34,333 nt of DNA from Candidatus Uhrbacteria bacterium (GTDB lineage: Bacteria > Patescibacteriota > Patescibacteriia > UBA9934 > GWF2-40-263). The stretch's first letter is position 1. Every line of letters starts with the position of its first letter. A program made the position numbers and the translations under genes. Location of the stretch: positions 1-34,333 of the forward strand of contig JACQSJ010000013.1 in NCBI GenBank assembly GCA_016205995.1, in the 5' to 3' direction. The notes beneath the pieces are model-generated. The model saw only the letters and a list, made by a program, of their open reading frames with translations. It made no database searches and was not told the DNA's origin. Positions 835 to 31,614 of the stretch are shown here, in pieces.

Positions 835-839
835 ATCCT

Positions 840-880
840 AACCACCCCTAGCCCCTCCTTAAAAAGGAGGGGAACCGAAT
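840..880 (+). repeat. REP-like hairpin repeat, copy A (AACCACCCCTAGCCCCTCCTTAAAAAGGAGGGGAACCGAAT); stem 852-858/866-872
   Basis: Near-identical copies lie at 18224-18264 and 22285-22326 in the same orientation. No U-tract follows, so it is not a classical terminator. Confidence 0.8.
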
Positions 881-18146: not shown

Positions 18147-18232
18147 TCCCCCCTGCCTGAGGGGGGATTAAGGGGGGAGGGAGCGCGGGGAGGTTGCCGG
18201 CGACTTCGTCCGAAGCGAACGGCAACCTCCCC
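18147..18232. other. G/C-run structured intergenic segment: hairpin 18147-18167, G-quadruplex-type motif 18161-18190, 13-bp hairpin 18187-18199/18220-18232
   Basis: TCCCCCC-TGCCTGA-GGGGGGA; G6-ATTAA-G6-A-G3-AGCGC-G4; GGGGAGGTTGCCG...CGGCAACCTCCCC. Confidence 0.6.
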
Positions 18233-18264
18233 TAACCCCTCCTTGGGAAGGAGGGGGATCGAAT
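18224..18264 (+). repeat. REP-like hairpin repeat, copy B (AACCTCCCCTAACCCCTCCTTGGGAAGGAGGGGGATCGAAT)
   Basis: Same flanks and stem as copies A and C; the loop is TTGGGAA instead of TTAAAAA. Confidence 0.75.
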
Positions 18265-18269
18265 AATGA

Positions 18270-18296
18270 TTGACATTTTTGCAAAAATGGGATAAG
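18270..18296 (+). promoter_or_regulatory. putative promoter of the vWA-FHA operon
   Basis: TTGACA (18270-18275), 15-nt spacer containing TG (18288-18289), then GATAAG (18291-18296). A small hairpin GGTTGG-CCTTT-CCAACC lies just before the AGGAGG RBS. Confidence 0.35.
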
Positions 18297-18330
18297 CCAA
18301 GGTTGGCCTTTCCAACCGATAGGAGGCTCG

Positions 18331-19599
18331 ATGTCTGCTCTTGAGATTCCTGCCGACGCCGTCCTGGACGTCCGCATCCGACTCGGACGAGATCGCCTGA
18401 CCGCTATTTCCCCCTCGCGGGTTCAGGTCCTCATCGACACGCGTCCCCAGGCGCTGACGCGGCGACAGACCGTCCCCGTGTCCATCCGGCTCGTCGTGGA
18501 CGTTTCCGGCTCCATGGGGGACCCCGTCGATCATGACCAGGAGAGCAAGCTCGAGGTCGTCAAGCAGGCGATCCTCAGACTACTCGACGAGCTGACCGAT
18601 CACGACTCCGTGCTCCTTTCGGTGTTCAGCACCGACGGCCGACTGGTGGTCCCGCAGATCCACGCACATCGCGACTCGCGACAGCGGATCCGAAATCTGC
18701 TGAAGAAGCTCAAGCCCGAGCAGTCCACCAACATCTCCGCTGGTCTCGAGCTCGCCCTGCATCCGGTCGTCGATGGTGCCCTGCCTCGTGTGATCCTGTT
18801 CACGGACGGCAACTCCTCGTTCCCGAACGAGGACCACCCGCGCCTTGTCAGGCTTGCGGACGAGGCGCGCGCGAGCCAGATCCCGCTCTCGATCTACGGC
18901 ACGGGCTCGAACTACAACTGGAGTCTGCTGCACCAGGTCGCCATCCAAGCCGGCGGAGGGAGCTTCCTCAAGCACGTCATGAACCCTTCGACCCTCGAGG
19001 GGCACATGCTCGCCGAGCTGGCGTTCCTGCGTGGCACGGCCATCAACGACTTCCGGATCAAGGGCTCTGTCCCCGACGGAGTCAAGATCATCTCGGTCAC
19101 GTCGATGATGCCCCTCATCCGCAAGCTCAAGCACGACGGTCACGTCTTCCGCGACTCGACGGGCGCGCTTGATCTCCACCGCGGAGCCCAGTACCTCGTG
19201 GAGCTGGAGGTCGCCAACCCGCAGGTCGGCCTCCTCGCCAGGGTGCTGACCATGCGCTTCCGCGGCCGGCTCTACGAAACGGGGCAGCGCTTCGACCACA
19301 CGCTGGACGCGCCCGTCACGTTCGTGGAGAACCCCTCCGAGGCCTCTGCGCCCGACCCCGAGGTCAAGAAGGTCCAACTGATGGTCATGGCCAACGACAA
19401 GGCGAAGGAGGGCAAGTTCCAAGAAGCCTCTACCCTCTACTCCCGCGCCGGTGACCGCGACACGTCCCAGGCCATGTCGGTTCTGCACACGGCCTCGCTG
19501 GGGGCCGACGCAGACCTCGAGGGGCTGACCCGCACGGGGTCGACCTTGGCCGGTGGGTCCGTGACCCAACTCTTCACGGCCAACCCCAACAAGAGCTAG
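18331..19599 (+). CDS. von Willebrand factor A (vWA) domain protein with complete MIDAS, plus an unassigned C-terminal region of about 195 aa
   Basis: AGGAGG RBS 5 nt upstream of the ATG. MIDAS elements DVSGSMG (D57), QSTNISAG and ILFTDGNS. G/C-ending codons predominate, with Lys always AAG and Phe always TTC. Confidence 0.9.
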   Translation: MSALEIPADAVLDVRIRLGRDRLTAISPSRVQVLIDTRPQALTRRQTVPVSIRLVVDVSGSMGDPVDHDQESKLEVVKQAILRLLDELTDHDSVLLSVFSTDGRLVVPQIHAHRDSRQRIRNLLKKLKPEQSTNISAGLELALHPVVDGALPRVILFTDGNSSFPNEDHPRLVRLADEARASQIPLSIYGTGSNYNWSLLHQVAIQAGGGSFLKHVMNPSTLEGHMLAELAFLRGTAINDFRIKGSVPDGVKIISVTSMMPLIRKLKHDGHVFRDSTGALDLHRGAQYLVELEVANPQVGLLARVLTMRFRGRLYETGQRFDHTLDAPVTFVENPSEASAPDPEVKKVQLMVMANDKAKEGKFQEASTLYSRAGDRDTSQAMSVLHTASLGADADLEGLTRTGSTLAGGSVTQLFTANPNKS

Positions 19600-19607
19600 G
19601 AGGTACC

Positions 19608-20183
19608 ATGCCCACCTGTCCCGCCTGTTCGGCTTCGTGCGTGCATGGGTCGCTCGTGTGCCCGCGTTGTGGTGAGGATTTGGACGCGGCCGCAGTGGCC
19701 GAGAACGTGCCCGTTACCCGAGCCCTGATGGTGGTGGGAGTAGGCCCAGAACGGGTCTACACCGTTCCCAAGATCGACCTCCATCTGATCATGGTGGAGG
19801 AACGGGTCTTCCCCGAGCACGCCATCGTGGCCACCATGCCGATCCGGCGCCTGGAAGTACCGGTCCGCATCGGTCGCAACGACCTGAGCAAGAGCCCGCC
19901 GATCCTTCCGGAGCTCGACCTGGGCCAGATCCTGGCGGAACTACTGCCAGGCAAGCGGCCGGTCGTGTCGCGGCTCCACGCCGCACTTCAGCTCAAGGAC
20001 GGCCGACCCGTCATCAAGCACCTGGTTGCCTCCCAGAATTCGACCTGGATCCAGCGCGGAAAGAGGCTCTCGGCTGTGCCGATCAACGCGCAGCGCGAGC
20101 TCGAGCACCGAGACACGCTCATCCTGGGAGACCCGCTGGGCCGCTACGTCGCTCTGCGCGTGATCCTGAGCGATCCGCGCTGA
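19608..20183 (+). CDS. zinc-ribbon + FHA domain protein
   Basis: The AGGAGG RBS overlaps the vWA stop. N-terminal CPAC-x10-CPRC. FHA core RIGRND...VSRLHAALQLKDG...SQNSTWI...LILGDPLG. Confidence 0.9.
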   Translation: MPTCPACSASCVHGSLVCPRCGEDLDAAAVAENVPVTRALMVVGVGPERVYTVPKIDLHLIMVEERVFPEHAIVATMPIRRLEVPVRIGRNDLSKSPPILPELDLGQILAELLPGKRPVVSRLHAALQLKDGRPVIKHLVASQNSTWIQRGKRLSAVPINAQRELEHRDTLILGDPLGRYVALRVILSDPR

Positions 20184-20196
20184 AGCAAGCGCTACG

Positions 20197-20228
20197 ATCC
20201 CGACCCTCGCGGCCGGGATTTTCATTTT
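20197..20228 (+). terminator. intrinsic terminator of the vWA-FHA operon
   Basis: ATCCCG...CGGGAT stem followed by TTTTCATTTT. Confidence 0.55.
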
Positions 20229-20263
20229 CCTCAACCAGGTCGGACATTAAATGTCCGACCTGC
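20215..20263 (+). repeat. palindrome-bearing repeat, copy 1 (perfect 27-nt palindrome 20236-20262)
   Basis: GGGATTTTCATTTTCCTCAACCAGGTCGGACATTAAATGTCCGACCTGC is nearly identical to 31543-31590 and shares its core with 29673-29715. Confidence 0.9.
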
Positions 20264-20265
20264 GA

Positions 20266-20302
20266 GCAAAAAGAATACCGCCCTGATCTGATCGTGGGCG
20301 GT
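20266..20302 (-). terminator. intrinsic terminator of the 202-aa gene
   Basis: Minus strand: ACCGCCC-12 nt-GGGCGGT followed by ATTCTTTTTGC. Confidence 0.55.
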
Positions 20303-20318
20303 CGTGATGGAGAGAACC

Positions 20319-20927
20319 TCAGTTGTCGAAGCGTGCCCCAGGGGCGTGTTCAGCGCCGAAGAGGTGTCCCCAGAGCTTGCGGCCTTGATTCTGCCAGAAT
20401 TCGATCCACTTCTGACGGCCGATGAAGTAGGTCCGCTTCCTGCCGTCGGGGTAGTCGACGTGGATGCGGCAGATCACCTTGTTGGTAGGGTCCACCGCCT
20501 TGATGCGCGGCTTGGCTGCCATCTGGAGCACGATCTGGTGCACCAGCGTGAGGCCGCAGCTCGCTGCCTTGCCGCACGGCACGTGGATCTCGGCGGAGAC
20601 GACGTGGATCTCCTTGAGCGCTTCCGCCTCGCGGATCTGTTGAAAGACGTACTCGTCGATCCCGCGACCCGGATAGAGCGGCGAGTCGGGTGCGACCACC
20701 ATGCACCCCCCGTGATGGGTGATGAGGTGGATGCGGGGCGTGACGCCAGCCTCGATCGCCACGCGGCGGTCGTGCTCGATGCGGTCGAGCATCTGGTCCC
20801 CGTCCGGGCATCGGATGACGATGACACCACGGGAGAGGTCGAGACCGTTCCCGTTCATGTCCTCGATGACACCGGCGCGACGAAGGGTTTCGATGACTTG
20901 GATGTCGAACGACGACAGCCGGCCCAT
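20319..20927 (-). CDS. hypothetical 202-aa protein with Cys/His motifs (IRCPDGD, THHGGC, HVPCGKAASCG)
   Basis: ATG 20927 is preceded by GGAGGATCC, with its own promoter and terminator. G/C-ending codons are strong in this frame. The ORF-track start at 20996 would run through the promoter. Confidence 0.75.
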   Translation of the reverse strand: MGRLSSFDIQVIETLRRAGVIEDMNGNGLDLSRGVIVIRCPDGDQMLDRIEHDRRVAIEAGVTPRIHLITHHGGCMVVAPDSPLYPGRGIDEYVFQQIREAEALKEIHVVSAEIHVPCGKAASCGLTLVHQIVLQMAAKPRIKAVDPTNKVICRIHVDYPDGRKRTYFIGRQKWIEFWQNQGRKLWGHLFGAEHAPGARFDN

Positions 20928-22264: not shown

Positions 22265-22284
22265 AACGTGGACGTCAAATTCGT

Positions 22285-22325
22285 AACCACCCCTACCCCC
22301 TCCTTAAAAAGGAGGGGGACCGGAA

Positions 22326-22326: not shown

Positions 22327-24612
<2,286 letters not shown>

Positions 24613-24658
24613 ATTCCGGTCCTCACCCTTTCCAAGGGGGAGCTAGAGGGGGTTGCCG

Positions 24659-26164
24659 TTAAGCGTTAAATGTTTGGTTGAAGTCTTCGATGAGTTTCTT
24701 GAGACTCGCTTCGATCTCATCCGTGATGGCCTTCTCGTTCCGGAGCGACGTCATGACCTCAACGCCAGACGAGAGTATGTACTGCTGGAATGCTTCTTCC
24801 CAATCGACGATCTTCTCGACTGGCACCTGGTCAAGGTACCCGTTGATCGCCGCGAACAATACAGCGACCTGCGCTTCAAACGGGAGGGGGTGATACTGCG
24901 GTTGCTTCAACAACTCGGTAAGTCGGCGTCCGCGCTCGATCTGTTGGCGCGTACCGGCATCAAGGTCGGTGGCAAACTGGGCGAACGCTTCAAGCTCACG
25001 GAACTGCGCAAGCTCGAGGCGCAACTTCCCTGCTACCTTTTTCATGGCCTTGGTCTGCGCAGCTGATCCCACACGCGAGACGGAGAGTCCAACGTTAAGC
25101 GCTGGGCGAATACCGCGATAAAAGAGATCCGTTTCAAGATAGATCTGACCATCGGTGATGGAAATGACGTTGGTGGGAATGTACGCAGAGACGTCACCTG
25201 CCTGCGTCTCGATAATCGGAAGCGCGGTCAACGATCCACCGCCGTTCTCCTCATTGAGCCGAGCCGCACGCTCGAGCAAACGAGAGTGCAAGTAGAACAC
25301 ATCACCTGGATACGCCTCACGACCTGGAGGCCGGCGCAGCAACAGGGAAATTTCGCGGTACGCCCAAGCTTGCTTTGAAAGATCATCGTAAATGACAAGG
25401 GCGTCTTCCCCCTTAGCCATGAAGTACTCGCCGATCGTGCAGCCGGTAAACGGGGCGATGTAGGAGAGCGCCGCAGGATCAGACGCACCTGCCACGACCA
25501 CGGTCGTGTACTCCATGGCACCGGCTTCTTCCAGCTTGGCGACGATCTTTGCGATTTTGGATTCCTTCTGTCCGATCGCCACGTAGATGCATTTCACTCC
25601 CTGCCCTTTCTGGTTGATGATCGTATCCACGGCAATGGCCGTCTTCCCTGTTTGTCGGTCGCCAATAATAAGCTCGCGCTGGCCACGACCAATAGGGATC
25701 ATGGAGTCCACGGCCTTGATACCCGTCTGAAGCGGAACGCCTACAGACCTACGCGTCATCACGCCCGGCGCAATTTTCTCGATTGGGTAAAACTTCTTCG
25801 CTGTAAATTTGCCTTTGCCATCGACGGGACTCCCTAGCGGGTCAATGACACGCCCGAGCACCTCGTCGGAGATTGGTACGGACAAAATTCGCCCCGTGGT
25901 CTTCACGGTATCCCCCTCTTTGATCTTCGAGGCTTCCCCCAGCACAACCGCTCCCACACCGTCCTCCTCAAGATTGAGGGCTACTCCGTAGACACCGCCC
26001 GGAAACTCAATCATCTCAGAGGCTTTCACCCCAGAGAGTCCACTCATGCGAGCGGTTCCGTCTCCCACCGCCATGACCGTTCCCACCTCTTCCTGCTTGG
26101 TTTCAGCGTGAAAGTTTTCAAGCGCTCCTTTCAGTGCCTCGATGATATCCGTTTTTGTCGTCAT
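24659..26164 (-). CDS. atpA: F1 ATP synthase alpha subunit
   Basis: Walker A GDRQTGKT; 501 aa; the conserved [20 protein letters not shown] block. Confidence 0.97.
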
Positions 26165-27116: not shown

Positions 27117-27161
27117 ATATTTTCTCAACAAATACCCACAAACACTTCTGGATATTAGTTG

Positions 27162-27285
27162 AGAAATCTATATGACAGATGAGATGCGCCGCTCTGGAGG
27201 TCGGAAAGCCGCCGAAACGTAGGTAACCCTACGATGAGGCGGTTTCCGACCGAAGAGCAAGCAGATCGCTGTCAGATAGATTTCT
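27162..27285 (+). repeat. long rod-like hairpin element X between atpE and atpF (core 27208-27242)
   Basis: Outer 17-bp stem 27162-27178/27269-27285 with 1 mismatch; inner stem GGTCGGAAAGCCGCC/GGCGGTTTCCGACC; apical CGTAGG-TAAC-CCTACG. It overlaps the atpE stop codon. Confidence 0.75.
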
Positions 27286-27502
27286 ACAACGTGAACGAAA
27301 CCACCAGCGAGTAGATGGCAATAGCCTCGGCAAATGCCATACCAAGAAGCATCGGAACAAAAATCTTCCCGGCTGCCTCTGGGTTGCGGCCGATGGCTTC
27401 CATCGCCTTCATCCCGACAAGACCGATACCAATGGCTGGTCCAAGACCGCCGATGGCGATCGTGATTCCCTTGGTAAAGGTTGCAATTGTTTCTGCATCC
27501 AT
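27284..27502 (-). CDS. atpE: Fo ATP synthase c subunit
   Basis: 72-aa two-helix proteolipid with GxGxGxG (GGLGPAIGIG) and the carboxylate in FAEAIAIY. Confidence 0.95.
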   Translation of the reverse strand: MDAETIATFTKGITIAIGGLGPAIGIGLVGMKAMEAIGRNPEAAGKIFVPMLLGMAFAEAIAIYSLVVSFTL

Positions 27503-29632: not shown

Positions 29633-29661
29633 CTTTTACCACTCTAAACTTGCCCTGTCAA
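29633..29661 (-). promoter_or_regulatory. putative promoter of the 283-aa gene
   Basis: Minus-strand TTGACA (29661-29656), 17-nt spacer, TAAAAG (29638-29633). Confidence 0.45.
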
Positions 29662-29672
29662 TCACCTCTAAC

Positions 29673-29715
29673 GAATTTCCCTGCGCCCTGTCGGACATTT
29701 AATGTCCGACAGGGC
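29673..29715 (+). repeat. palindrome-bearing repeat, copy 2 (perfect 31-nt palindrome 29685-29715) between the divergent island-B promoters
   Basis: GAATTTCCCTGCGCCCTGTCGGACATTTAATGTCCGACAGGGC, in the same orientation as copies 1 and 3 and followed by GAAAAGAAT. Confidence 0.9.
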
Positions 29716-29776
29716 TGAAAAGAATTGATAAATGTATCGAAATTTGTCATTGACTGGCAACGGATGTAGGAGTCCT

Positions 29777-29805
29777 TTGACATTTGCCGATTTCCCTGCT
29801 AATCT
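29777..29805 (+). promoter_or_regulatory. putative promoter of the 540-aa gene
   Basis: TTGACA (29777-29782), 17-nt spacer, TAATCT (29800-29805). An 8-bp 5'-UTR hairpin (29848-29867) lies just before the GGAG RBS. Confidence 0.5.
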
Positions 29806-29882
29806 CCGACCCTGGCATTTCTTCCGCCAGTGTTCCGTACAACCCCCGTGCAAGGCCGACCTTGCACATTCCTGGAGAAGCC

Positions 29883-31505
29883 ATGAGTTCAGCCCCGAAC
29901 CTCCTTCCCATCCCGCTCTCGCGGACCGGCCGCACCCTGCTGCTGGCCCTCGACCTCGTCGAAGGCTTCATGTGGAAGATGCTCCCCTCCATCCGCAACG
30001 AGGACGACGGGAAGGGCGGCACCAAGCGCGTGCGCGTCTCCAAGCAGGACCGCATCGACTTCCTGAAGTCCCGCCTCGTCATGAGCGCGGAGAACGAGCA
30101 GGTCCCCCACATGGCCGGCGTCGACTGGCGCGCGGACGTGCCCAAGTACGCCACCGAGGTCCTGATCCCCGCGATCAAGGACGGGCAGTACCAGTACGAC
30201 GGCGACGGCAACGTCGCTCTCGCTCCCGAGAAGCGCTGGCCCTACGCGGTCCGCGGCCAGACCAAGCTCCCGGACGGTAATGCCATCACGGTGCGCCCGC
30301 TCGTGCTCTGCGATGGCAAGGGCTTCCTCCTCCCCTACGTCAAGCCCCGTCAGCAGCAGGGCGAGGTCGTCTACGACGGCGTCGACGGCATGATCAGCTT
30401 CCTCTTCCGCGACTTCAACCCGTGGACCTGGGAGGACATCCTCGACGGTGACAAGCCCTCCTTCCGCGCCGTTCCGGCCGCGCTCGCGCGCCCCGAGACC
30501 GTGGCGCGCTGGAACGAGCTGGTCAAGCGCCGCGGCGAGCAGGACAAGTCCTACCCGGTCGCCTCCGAGCTCGTGACGCCCATCGCGCACAACCAGTTCG
30601 GCCGCCGCGTCCTCAAGTACCGCCCGCAGGGACACCCCCTGGTCCGCGACGGGATGCTGGGAATCCTCAAGCCCCCCCGCGACCGCGAGGAGGCCGGTGC
30701 GATCAACGTTCGCAAGGACGTGAAGCGGTGGACCCTGGGCGACCTGGTCGGCAAGACACTCGCGCTGGGCAAGGGCCTCAAGCTCATCCAGCCCGAGAAG
30801 AGCGGGCGCTTCGAGCCCCACAAGCTCGCCATCAACGAGATGTGGAGCTGGATCGATGTCGAGCAGGTCGACGGGATCTGGGGTGCGGGCACCCGCGTGG
30901 ACCAGCACGTCATCAAGGCGGAGCAGGACCCGATCGACGCCCTCGCGGCGCTCGGCCTCACGCTCTACTCCTGCAGCCCCTTCGAGGTGAAGGGAATCGT
31001 GACCCGACTCCTGACCGCCCCGATCACCGACGATCACCCGATCATCGTGAACCTGCGCAGCCGCGGGGACCTCGAGGTCGACGCCGACGAGGATCTCGCC
31101 CGGCGTCAGATGCGCGCGATCGAGACGATCCTCGTGGACGGCGCCCGCGGCACCATCCGCGAAGCCCGGCGGCGGCTCGAGCACGAGCTCGGCGGCGCCG
31201 GCAGCCAGAACCCGGGCATCAACCTGGAGCAGGCGCTGGGTGCCGAACCCACGCCGGAGCTCCTCCGGCAGGTCCACGACAACCCGACCGGGGACAACCT
31301 CCTCGTGATCGGGATGCTCACCAGCAAGACGGCCTCCGACCTCGGCCTGACCGAGTGGGACCCCAAGTGCTGGGTCCTCGTCGAGGCCTTCAAGACCCTG
31401 CTCCTCGCCCTGGCCGCCTCGGCCGGGATCGAGATGGCGCCCCCGCCGGCGCCGCCCGAGGCTCCCGCGGTCACCGAGGACCAGCCGCCCGCCACCAACC
31501 CCTGA
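29883..31505 (+). CDS. hypothetical 540-aa protein, no recognisable domain
   Basis: ATG 29883 has GGAG 6 nt upstream. The ORF-track start at 29784 lies inside the promoter. Extreme G/C-ending codon bias (Lys AAG, Phe TTC). Pro/Ala-rich C-terminal tail. Confidence 0.8.
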   Translation: MSSAPNLLPIPLSRTGRTLLLALDLVEGFMWKMLPSIRNEDDGKGGTKRVRVSKQDRIDFLKSRLVMSAENEQVPHMAGVDWRADVPKYATEVLIPAIKDGQYQYDGDGNVALAPEKRWPYAVRGQTKLPDGNAITVRPLVLCDGKGFLLPYVKPRQQQGEVVYDGVDGMISFLFRDFNPWTWEDILDGDKPSFRAVPAALARPETVARWNELVKRRGEQDKSYPVASELVTPIAHNQFGRRVLKYRPQGHPLVRDGMLGILKPPRDREEAGAINVRKDVKRWTLGDLVGKTLALGKGLKLIQPEKSGRFEPHKLAINEMWSWIDVEQVDGIWGAGTRVDQHVIKAEQDPIDALAALGLTLYSCSPFEVKGIVTRLLTAPITDDHPIIVNLRSRGDLEVDADEDLARRQMRAIETILVDGARGTIREARRRLEHELGGAGSQNPGINLEQALGAEPTPELLRQVHDNPTGDNLLVIGMLTSKTASDLGLTEWDPKCWVLVEAFKTLLLALAASAGIEMAPPPAPPEAPAVTEDQPPATNP

Positions 31506-31521
31506 GCCACGCGCTCAACGC

Positions 31522-31556
31522 CCCCGACATCGAAAGATCGTCGGGGTTTTCATTTT
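31522..31556 (+). terminator. intrinsic terminator of the 540-aa gene
   Basis: CCCCGAC-ATCGAAAGATC-GTCGGGG followed by TTTTCATTTT. Confidence 0.7.
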
Positions 31557-31590
31557 CCCTGCCAGGTCGGACATTTAATGTCCGACCTGC
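31543..31590 (+). repeat. palindrome-bearing repeat, copy 3 (perfect 27-nt palindrome 31563-31589)
   Basis: GGGGTTTTCATTTTCCCTGCCAGGTCGGACATTTAATGTCCGACCTGC. Confidence 0.9.
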
Positions 31591-31593
31591 TTA

Positions 31594-31614
31594 CAAAAAA
31601 CGGCCTAGAGGCCG
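31594..31614 (-). terminator. intrinsic terminator of tatD (hairpin overlaps the stop codon)
   Basis: Minus strand: CGGCC-TCTA-GGCCG followed by TTTTTTGTAAG. Confidence 0.55.

Follow-up and report, generated by a model that had tools for sequence, protein, structure and literature searches.

A lineage-restricted palindromic hairpin repeat, possibly REP/MITE-like, in intergenic A/T tracts of Candidatus Uhrbacteria

Three near-identical palindromes lie in the 34,333-nucleotide contig of Candidatus Uhrbacteria that was analysed here at its full length (the window). We show that they are members of an ordinary though undescribed repeat family, and are not the edges of genomic islands. Our favoured explanation, which we hold with only modest confidence, is that the family consists of lineage-restricted hairpin repeats of Candidatus Uhrbacteria, non-autonomous and REP/MITE-like, which survive in A/T tracts that are not transcribed. 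Its mobility is something we infer from indels alone. Genomes of the Candidate Phyla Radiation are small and are thought to be poor in repeats, and a search of the literature returned no paper on REP- or MITE-like families in this radiation or in Uhrbacteria.

The repeat is defined by a 21-nt core, GTCGGACATTWAATGTCCGAC, which is present three times in the window where 0.01 matches to the pattern are expected; none of 100 dinucleotide shuffles reached three. A repeat finder also recovers the family, flanks included, and a covariance model scores the three 53-nt units (Table 1) at E = 5e-11 to 6e-14. All three copies are intergenic, and all stand beside genes of high GC content at third codon positions (GC3). 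Further copies in the source metagenome suggest a full-length unit of about 53 nt, itself palindromic, with the arrangement CATTTTCYTCAACCAG-core-CTGGTTGARGAAAATG. The core is the same in five copies, whereas the flanks diverge, and the conserved 5' flank of the stem reads CAACCAG or a variant of it. No enrichment of the half-site TCGGACA was seen outside the palindromes. DNA folding predicts strong hairpins in copies 1 to 3 (z-scores of -5 to -7; -17.6 kcal/mol and z = -6.6 for copy 2), in which the perfect core extends to arms of 12-15 bp; copy 1 folds as a 12-bp hairpin with a terminator hairpin on each side. The outer arms are either CAG/CTG or GCCCT/AGGGC, each pair being complementary. 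Thus the three copies, the core, the shared flanks, the A-runs and the complementary outer arms described in the initial annotation were all recovered, with two corrections. An A-run does follow each copy, but the strings given for copies 2 and 3 had been swapped; and the common orientation ascribed to the copies holds for their flanks but not for the central base, which in copy 1 is A, the complement of the T in copies 2 and 3. Copies 1 and 3 share their orientation on the strand with G<C.

Table 1. Positions of the repeat copies, their flanking signals and other palindromic insertions in the window
Feature	Position	Strand	Sequence or structure	Score or basis
Second-family copy	836-877	+		repeat finder
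Second-family copy	18220-18261	+		repeat finder
Intrinsic terminator of Zn-ribbon/FHA gene	20197..20228	+	stem CCCGACC..GGCCGGG, tail ATTTTCATTTT	fold
Palindrome copy 1	20223..20275 (core 20239-20259)	+	left flank CATTTTCCTCAACCAG	66.9 bits, E = 5.6e-14
Intrinsic terminator of convergent 225-aa gene	20268..20302	-	ACCGCCC..GGGCGGT, then ATTCTTTTT	fold
Second-family copy	22281-22322	+		repeat finder
Second-family copy	24610-24660	-		repeat finder
Long hairpin in atpF-atpE gap, inside atp operon	27158-27290		near-perfect, ~130 nt	-43 kcal/mol, z = -9.8
Promoter-like site of 283-aa gene (putative function)	29633..29661	-	TTGACA, 17 nt, TAAAAG	TGTCAA invariant in alignment
Palindrome copy 2	29674..29726 (core 29690-29710)	+	perfect 15-nt arms GCCCTGTCGGACATT / AATGTCCGACAGGGC	55.2 bits
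Promoter-like site of 540-aa gene (putative function)	29777..29805	+	TTGACA, 17 nt, TAATCT	invariant alignment columns
Intrinsic terminator of 540-aa gene	31522..31556	+	CCCCGACATCG..CGTCGGGG, then TTTTCATTTT	fold
Palindrome copy 3	31550..31602 (core 31566-31586)	+		covariance model; empty sites in relatives
Intrinsic terminator of tatD	31591..31614	-	CGGCCTCTAGGCCG, then TTTTTTGTAA	fold

Comparison of nine sequences of the family points to constraint on pairing within a single strand. The inner ten pairs of the stem are almost always paired, and the three innermost pairs are never unpaired even though both sides have changed in four of the nine sequences. The covariation score is 0.318, compared with 0.159 for shuffles (none of 500 reached 0.318) and at most 0.114 for slid partners. 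Since the innermost pairs covary right up to the 3-nt loop, an intrastrand hairpin would be recognised rather than a duplex bound by a dimeric protein, which would not enforce pairing to that point. With only nine sequences, some of them related by descent, this covariation is supportive rather than decisive. Nor does it reach all outer arms: the complementarity said to be maintained is found in the three window copies but not in the copy at locus L006 from another metagenome, whose outer arms CAG / AGG do not pair, and covariation of the arms is therefore not universal. Rfam gave no match in the window at the gathering score.

At copies 1 and 3 the T-run on the plus strand is part of the terminator of the plus-strand gene upstream; at copy 1 the tail of the Zn-ribbon/FHA terminator runs into the left flank of the palindrome. 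The A-run that follows is the U-tract of a minus-strand terminator, that of the 225-aa gene at 20277-20302 for copy 1 and that of tatD at 31601-31614 for copy 3. Each of these copies thus has a terminator on either side, which makes it the central hairpin of three, within a stretch that neither gene is expected to transcribe. A terminator scan called the palindrome on neither strand, and no U-tract follows it on either strand. The initial annotation was thus right that the palindrome is no intrinsic terminator and that a separate, genuine one precedes copies 1 and 3; we add that a second, convergent terminator follows each.

This placement exactly between convergent terminators (copies 1 and 3, and L006) or divergent promoters (the copy 2 site) raises the question of whether the hairpin serves transcription, either as a symmetric hairpin that acts as a fail-safe or roadblock where genes converge, or as a cruciform that absorbs supercoils beside strongly transcribed genes. 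BIME/REP elements have been proposed to absorb supercoiling. The stability of the hairpin would suit such a role, and the consensus-like promoters and extreme GC3 of the neighbouring genes are compatible with high expression. Against it stand the missing U-tract on both strands and the complete flanking terminators that are already present, and that function alone in the relatives L008 and L014. In addition, according to the well-established twin-domain model, positive supercoiling builds up between convergent genes and disfavours the extrusion of a cruciform there. We therefore regard a structure tied to transcription as rather improbable.

Comparison with related genomes shows presence and absence of the palindromes at all three sites. 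The site of copy 3 is empty in L008 and L014, that of copy 2 in L007 and L008, and that of copy 1 in L016 and L017. At copy 3 the edges are clean. In L008 the empty site reads GGGGGTTTTCATTT|ACAAAAAACGGCCTAGAGGCC; the window matches it throughout save for an insert at the bar, the 37 nt TCCCTGCCAGGTCGGACATTTAATGTCCGACCTGCTT (about 31556-31592), which the L014 site lacks as well. The insert lies exactly at the junction TTTTCATTT|ACAAAAAAC, where the tails of the two convergent terminators meet, and in L007 and L008 the conserved terminator of the 540-aa gene runs straight into ACAAAAAAC. The junction permits a TT target-site duplication, which is ambiguous owing to the T-run. A candidate for a preferred target is TTTTCATTT, which L007 and L008 also have at their empty sites; we rejected the idea that it is a general terminator tail, as it occurs in the window only at copies 1 and 3. 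In L013 the copy 3 site holds a variant core (GTCGGACATTAAGTGT...) and the contig ends inside the copy, an example of how such repeats break assemblies. L007, L009, L015 and L018 have unrelated MITE-like inserts in the same gap, which thus seems to serve as a landing pad for small elements. Those at L007 11640-11740, L009 11770-11880 and L018 7650-7780, between the 540-aa gene and tatD, have terminal inverted repeats (e.g. GTCATTGCGAGG...CCTCGCAATGAC).

We also noted two conserved palindromes that flank the tatD terminator, CGATCAATTATGTCCGA|TCGGACATAATTGATCG and TTTTGTCCGG|TCGGACAATTT (L015 8470-8510 and 8590-8615; L018 7835-7875 and 7950-7970). They use the 8-mer half-site of the window core (TCGGACAT / ATGTCCGA) in everted order, like the junction of tandem copies, and the sharing may reflect coincidence or a related family.

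Copy 2 has a different setting, between the -35 boxes of the divergent promoter-like sites of the 283-aa and 540-aa genes and about 30 nt upstream of the -35 box of the former. A hairpin stands at this position in five of eight genomes (the window, L009, L013, L014 and L015) and is kept across deep divergence (53% protein identity), which could reflect a host function. L018 has no hairpin here, and the two closest relatives, L007 and L008, show a 45-column alignment gap; the difference may reflect either insertion in the other genomes or loss of the copies of L007 and L008 by palindrome deletion. The promoter region around the hairpin is otherwise well conserved among the genomes compared. The stems differ from genome to genome yet always pair (CAT/ATG, AGC/GCT, GGC/GCC, CAGC/GCCG), and L013 has two stem types within one genome. 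The flank CTGGTTGARGAAAA conserved at this site corresponds, as its reverse complement, to the left flank TTTTCYTCAACCAG seen in copy 1 and L006. Beyond the TAATCT box, the 540-aa gene has a leader (window 29800-29850), CCGNCCCTGGCATTTCTTNCGCCAGTGTTCCGTACAACCC, that is conserved in every relative and near-invariant across genomes in which protein identity is no more than 53-84%. Within it lies a small hairpin, CTGGC..GCCAG; the leader has no match in Rfam and may be regulatory.

The copy 2 site would fit a duplex palindrome bound by a dimeric protein of the host or of an element, such as a regulator or a nucleoid-associated protein, that would mark or control conserved GC3-rich genes. A position between divergent consensus-like promoters, occupied in most of the genomes, is what such a site would look like, and so is a core that stays invariant while its flanks diverge. 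Other observations are hard to reconcile with it. Copies 1 and 3 and L006 are located between convergent terminators, a setting that leaves an operator nothing to control; the hairpins differ in sequence among genomes and, in L013, even within one; and the two closest relatives run the same promoters without a palindrome. We consider a dimeric-protein site unlikely overall, though it deserves more weight than a structure tied to transcription. In its classical form, an operator can be rejected, as the palindrome has no fixed position relative to a promoter and the stems at the copy 2 site differ between genomes.

The family is not confined to the window. The sequencing runs that hold the window contig are groundwater metagenomes, and in the source metagenome (run X1 and sister runs) at least five further loci contain the core after strain variants are merged. 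They carry it with the left flank of copy 1 or the right flank of copy 3, followed by unrelated sequence, at depths of 4.6-10.8, similar to the 7-9 of the window strain; one has two adjacent palindromes. Several of these copies start at CATTTTCC.., which places the left edge of the unit there. Finding the core elsewhere in the same community, amid unrelated flanking sequence, is largely the outcome that the initial annotation had named as refuting its reading. Related copies occur in other gene contexts in two other metagenomes. L006 repeats the architecture of copies 1 and 3 (gene, terminator stem, TTTTCATTTTCTTCAACCAG, core, convergent terminator). At L003/L004, AACCAG and the core stand 15 nt upstream of the start codon of a secreted-protein gene, and in L003 the core adjoins a divergent gene for a TrmB-like regulator, a context that would favour the binding site of a dimeric protein. 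Metagenome contigs aligned to copy 2 were limited to the window's own contig, and those aligned to L006, in its own runs, were limited to the L006 contig at about 3.5x depth; a match to the core at L005 was rejected as a chance hit. In 185,579 species-representative genomes the core was found only as two chance-level palindromes (Oscillospiraceae and Leucobacter; about one expected), and it was found in none of the viral contigs and in neither the phage nor the plasmid collections. The covariance model, built from nine members, detected no further members in ~159 kb of the window and its relatives.

The genes beside the palindromes had been taken for foreign modules, a reading at odds with their distribution. 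The window holds housekeeping genes (the atp operon, tatD, cvpA, metG, gltX, mreBCD, PBP2, greA and an AddA-like helicase), and the genes at 29883-31505 (the 540-aa gene), 18331-20183 and 20319-20927, with GC3 of 0.81-0.95 against ~0.6 in their neighbours, are conserved and restricted to Uhrbacteria. The divergent 283-aa/540-aa pair is located between atpI and tatD in eight related genomes (34-84% protein identity), and the vWA and Zn-ribbon/FHA pair adjoins the helicase in L016 and L017 too. In every genome the 540-aa gene has a GC3 of 0.85-0.96 (0.5-0.65 in its neighbours), with or without the palindrome, and the vWA/FHA genes likewise keep their high GC3 in both cases. Having the same position in all Uhrbacteria relatives examined and high GC3 regardless of the palindrome, these are conserved Uhrbacteria genes and not recent islands. 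For the protein encoded by the 540-aa gene, which lies beside copies 2 and 3, homologues were confined to Candidatus Uhrbacteria; it had no match in Pfam, PHROGs, PADLOC or NCBIfam, an exact look-up found none on record, and its AlphaFold model (pLDDT 73) had no fold match in the PDB.

Island boundaries, likewise, do not coincide with the palindrome. In the gap of copy 1, the homologous Zn-ribbon/FHA terminator stem is present in both L016 and L017, and the palindrome is absent from both. L016 has a ~7-kb complex-I/Mbh-like operon between the FHA gene and the homologue of the 225-aa gene (window 20184-20318 versus L016 4379-11800), whereas L017 has the same gene arrangement as the window; breakpoints in gene content and the palindrome are thus separate matters. 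A similar ~7-kb operon, again downstream of the 225-aa homologue, adjoins atpC in L007 and L009 and is absent from the window and L017. L007 and L008, for their part, have the module designated B without a copy. The proposed check of presence or absence in related genomes therefore gave a divided answer: the palindromes are polymorphic, as anticipated, but not in step with module boundaries. Repeats of this kind next to GC3-rich genes can be mistaken for the boundaries of an island.

These observations also bear on the proposal that the palindrome is a site for site-specific recombination (Xer/dif-like, att or attC-like) that delimits mobile gene modules. The operon difference at copy 1 could be read in its favour, and the consensus flanks CYTCAAC / GTTGARG agree with the R''/R' consensus of integrons at 6 of 7 positions. 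Nevertheless, the modules occupy the same position in all relatives with or without a palindrome, and L017 has the window-like order without one. Three near-identical symmetric sites within 11.3 kb would, by recombination between them, delete or invert the atp operon. The palindrome has no asymmetric spacer of 6-8 nt, the right side of all three window copies lacks GTT, and no integrase or Xer gene is nearby. We consider recombination of this kind very improbable. A Xer/dif site is rejected specifically by the number of copies (three in 34 kb and further loci), by a 1-nt centre in place of the 6-8-nt spacer and by their position flanking the essential atp operon; an integron attC site (R'' RYYYAAC, R' GTTRRRY) is rejected by the right sides without GTT, the perfect pairing and the missing integrase.

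The repeat resembles REP/REPIN elements, as defined in PMC3184786, in several respects. Its 21-nt core falls within the 20-40 nt of a REP hairpin palindrome, and it is short and lineage-specific, present at several loci and intergenic in all three window copies, with a conserved stem and variable flanks. Like them it is often found at gene 3' ends and convergent junctions, has a short motif 5' of the stem and includes one locus with an adjacent dimer. The differences are also clear. REP/REPIN elements have GT(A/G)G 5' of the stem, where the present repeat has CAACCAG and no GTAG; they number hundreds of copies, compared with about eight known loci or more here, known from a 34-kb contig and metagenome; and they are accompanied by a RAYT (Y1 transposase) gene flanked by REPs, whereas no RAYT was seen in the window or the related loci. 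The core is, unlike that of REPs, a perfect palindrome with an AT-rich centre, and the copies lie outside transcription units rather than in 3' UTRs. Well-known families of the REP/REPIN type include the REP/BIME elements of E. coli and the SMAG elements of Stenotrophomonas.

MITEs, exemplified by Correia, RUP, SPRITE and RPE, provide the second point of comparison. The repeat is, like them, non-autonomous and essentially an inverted repeat (CATTTTCYTCAACCAG..CTGGTTGARGAAAATG), inserts into A/T-rich intergenic DNA and has empty sites in relatives, and unrelated small elements use the same landing gap. In contrast, its 37-53 nt are below the usual MITE size and it has no clear target-site duplication. 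MITEs derive from a parent IS with matching ends, and none was found in the loci or in the viral, phage, plasmid and representative-genome collections. With the subterminal hairpins of IS200/IS605 elements (PATEs) it shares a hairpin with a conserved flanking motif, and copies 1 and 3 have the same orientation; unlike those elements, it has one symmetric hairpin without distinct left and right ends and no tnpA or tnpB nearby. The window gave no match to a recombinase, transposase, integrase or Y1_Tnp, and the gene tables of ~125 kb of related loci list no transposase or recombinase.

A REP/MITE-like hairpin repeat could be maintained as follows. The core would be kept near-invariant among copies while the flanks drift, and whole blocks of about 37-45 nt would come and go as discrete units. 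Copies would persist where they do no harm, in the A/T tracts between convergent terminators or divergent promoters. The constraint would act on intrastrand pairing, in a hairpin of single-stranded DNA or a cruciform. Spread would depend on a trans-acting, hairpin-recognising enzyme encoded elsewhere, for instance of the HUH/Y1 type, with CAACCAG perhaps taking the role of the REP GTAG motif for recognition or cleavage. Quasi-palindrome template switching at replication, a process established in E. coli, may keep the arms perfect. Among the recombinase, protein-binding and hairpin options originally put forward, handling of the hairpin by a Y1/RAYT-like enzyme is the most compatible with the data, while Xer/dif and a classical operator fail.

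One feature sits uneasily with a purely selfish element. Each of the five independent placements of known context adjoins genes of elevated GC3; the adjacency to GC3-rich genes first described for the window is real, and a model of random insertion would not predict it. This is also what the binding site of a dimeric protein would lead one to expect. The probability of such adjacency by chance is ~0.18^5, a rough figure from an ascertainment biased towards these loci, and the link is confounded with strand-switch gaps, since copies occupy three of the window's five convergent or divergent gaps. The adjacency would also accord with a bolder reading, which we find doubtful and rank below even a role in transcription: that the hairpin is a cis-element for a dedicated protein which marks the conserved extreme-GC3 genes of Uhrbacteria (the vWA/FHA pair, the 283-aa/540-aa pair and small secreted or unknown proteins), either as a shared regulatory site or as a hotspot of breakage or recombination, repair of which by GC-biased gene conversion would help to hold the GC3 of these genes high. 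The link to GC3 is the sole part of this work that could lead somewhere new.

Two further families of small palindromic insertions are present in the window and missing from the corresponding gaps in relatives. The second family has four copies of the form CCCCTCCTT-N5-AAGGAGGGG, also written AACCNCCCCTANCCCCTCCTT-N5-AAGGAGGGG, which is an anti-SD/SD-like hairpin. Two copies lie directly upstream of start codons (gltX and atpG), so that the ribosome-binding site is part of the 3' arm. Over the copy within 18201-18301 the metagenome depth is 336-904, compared with about 8 for the strain. The second family is absent from all relatives compared, where the corresponding gaps are short or overlapping. 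The other insertion is the long hairpin between atpF and atpE, in place of which L007, L008 and L013 have a 55-nt gap. Its copy in L015 is ~99% identical (one mismatch in ~190 nt) while the flanking genes are only ~80% identical, which suggests, from this sequence comparison, a recent exchange of a MITE-like element between lineages and points to active exchange of small elements among co-occurring Uhrbacteria. With at least three distinct families of small palindromes on one contig, the genome has been colonised by several such families.
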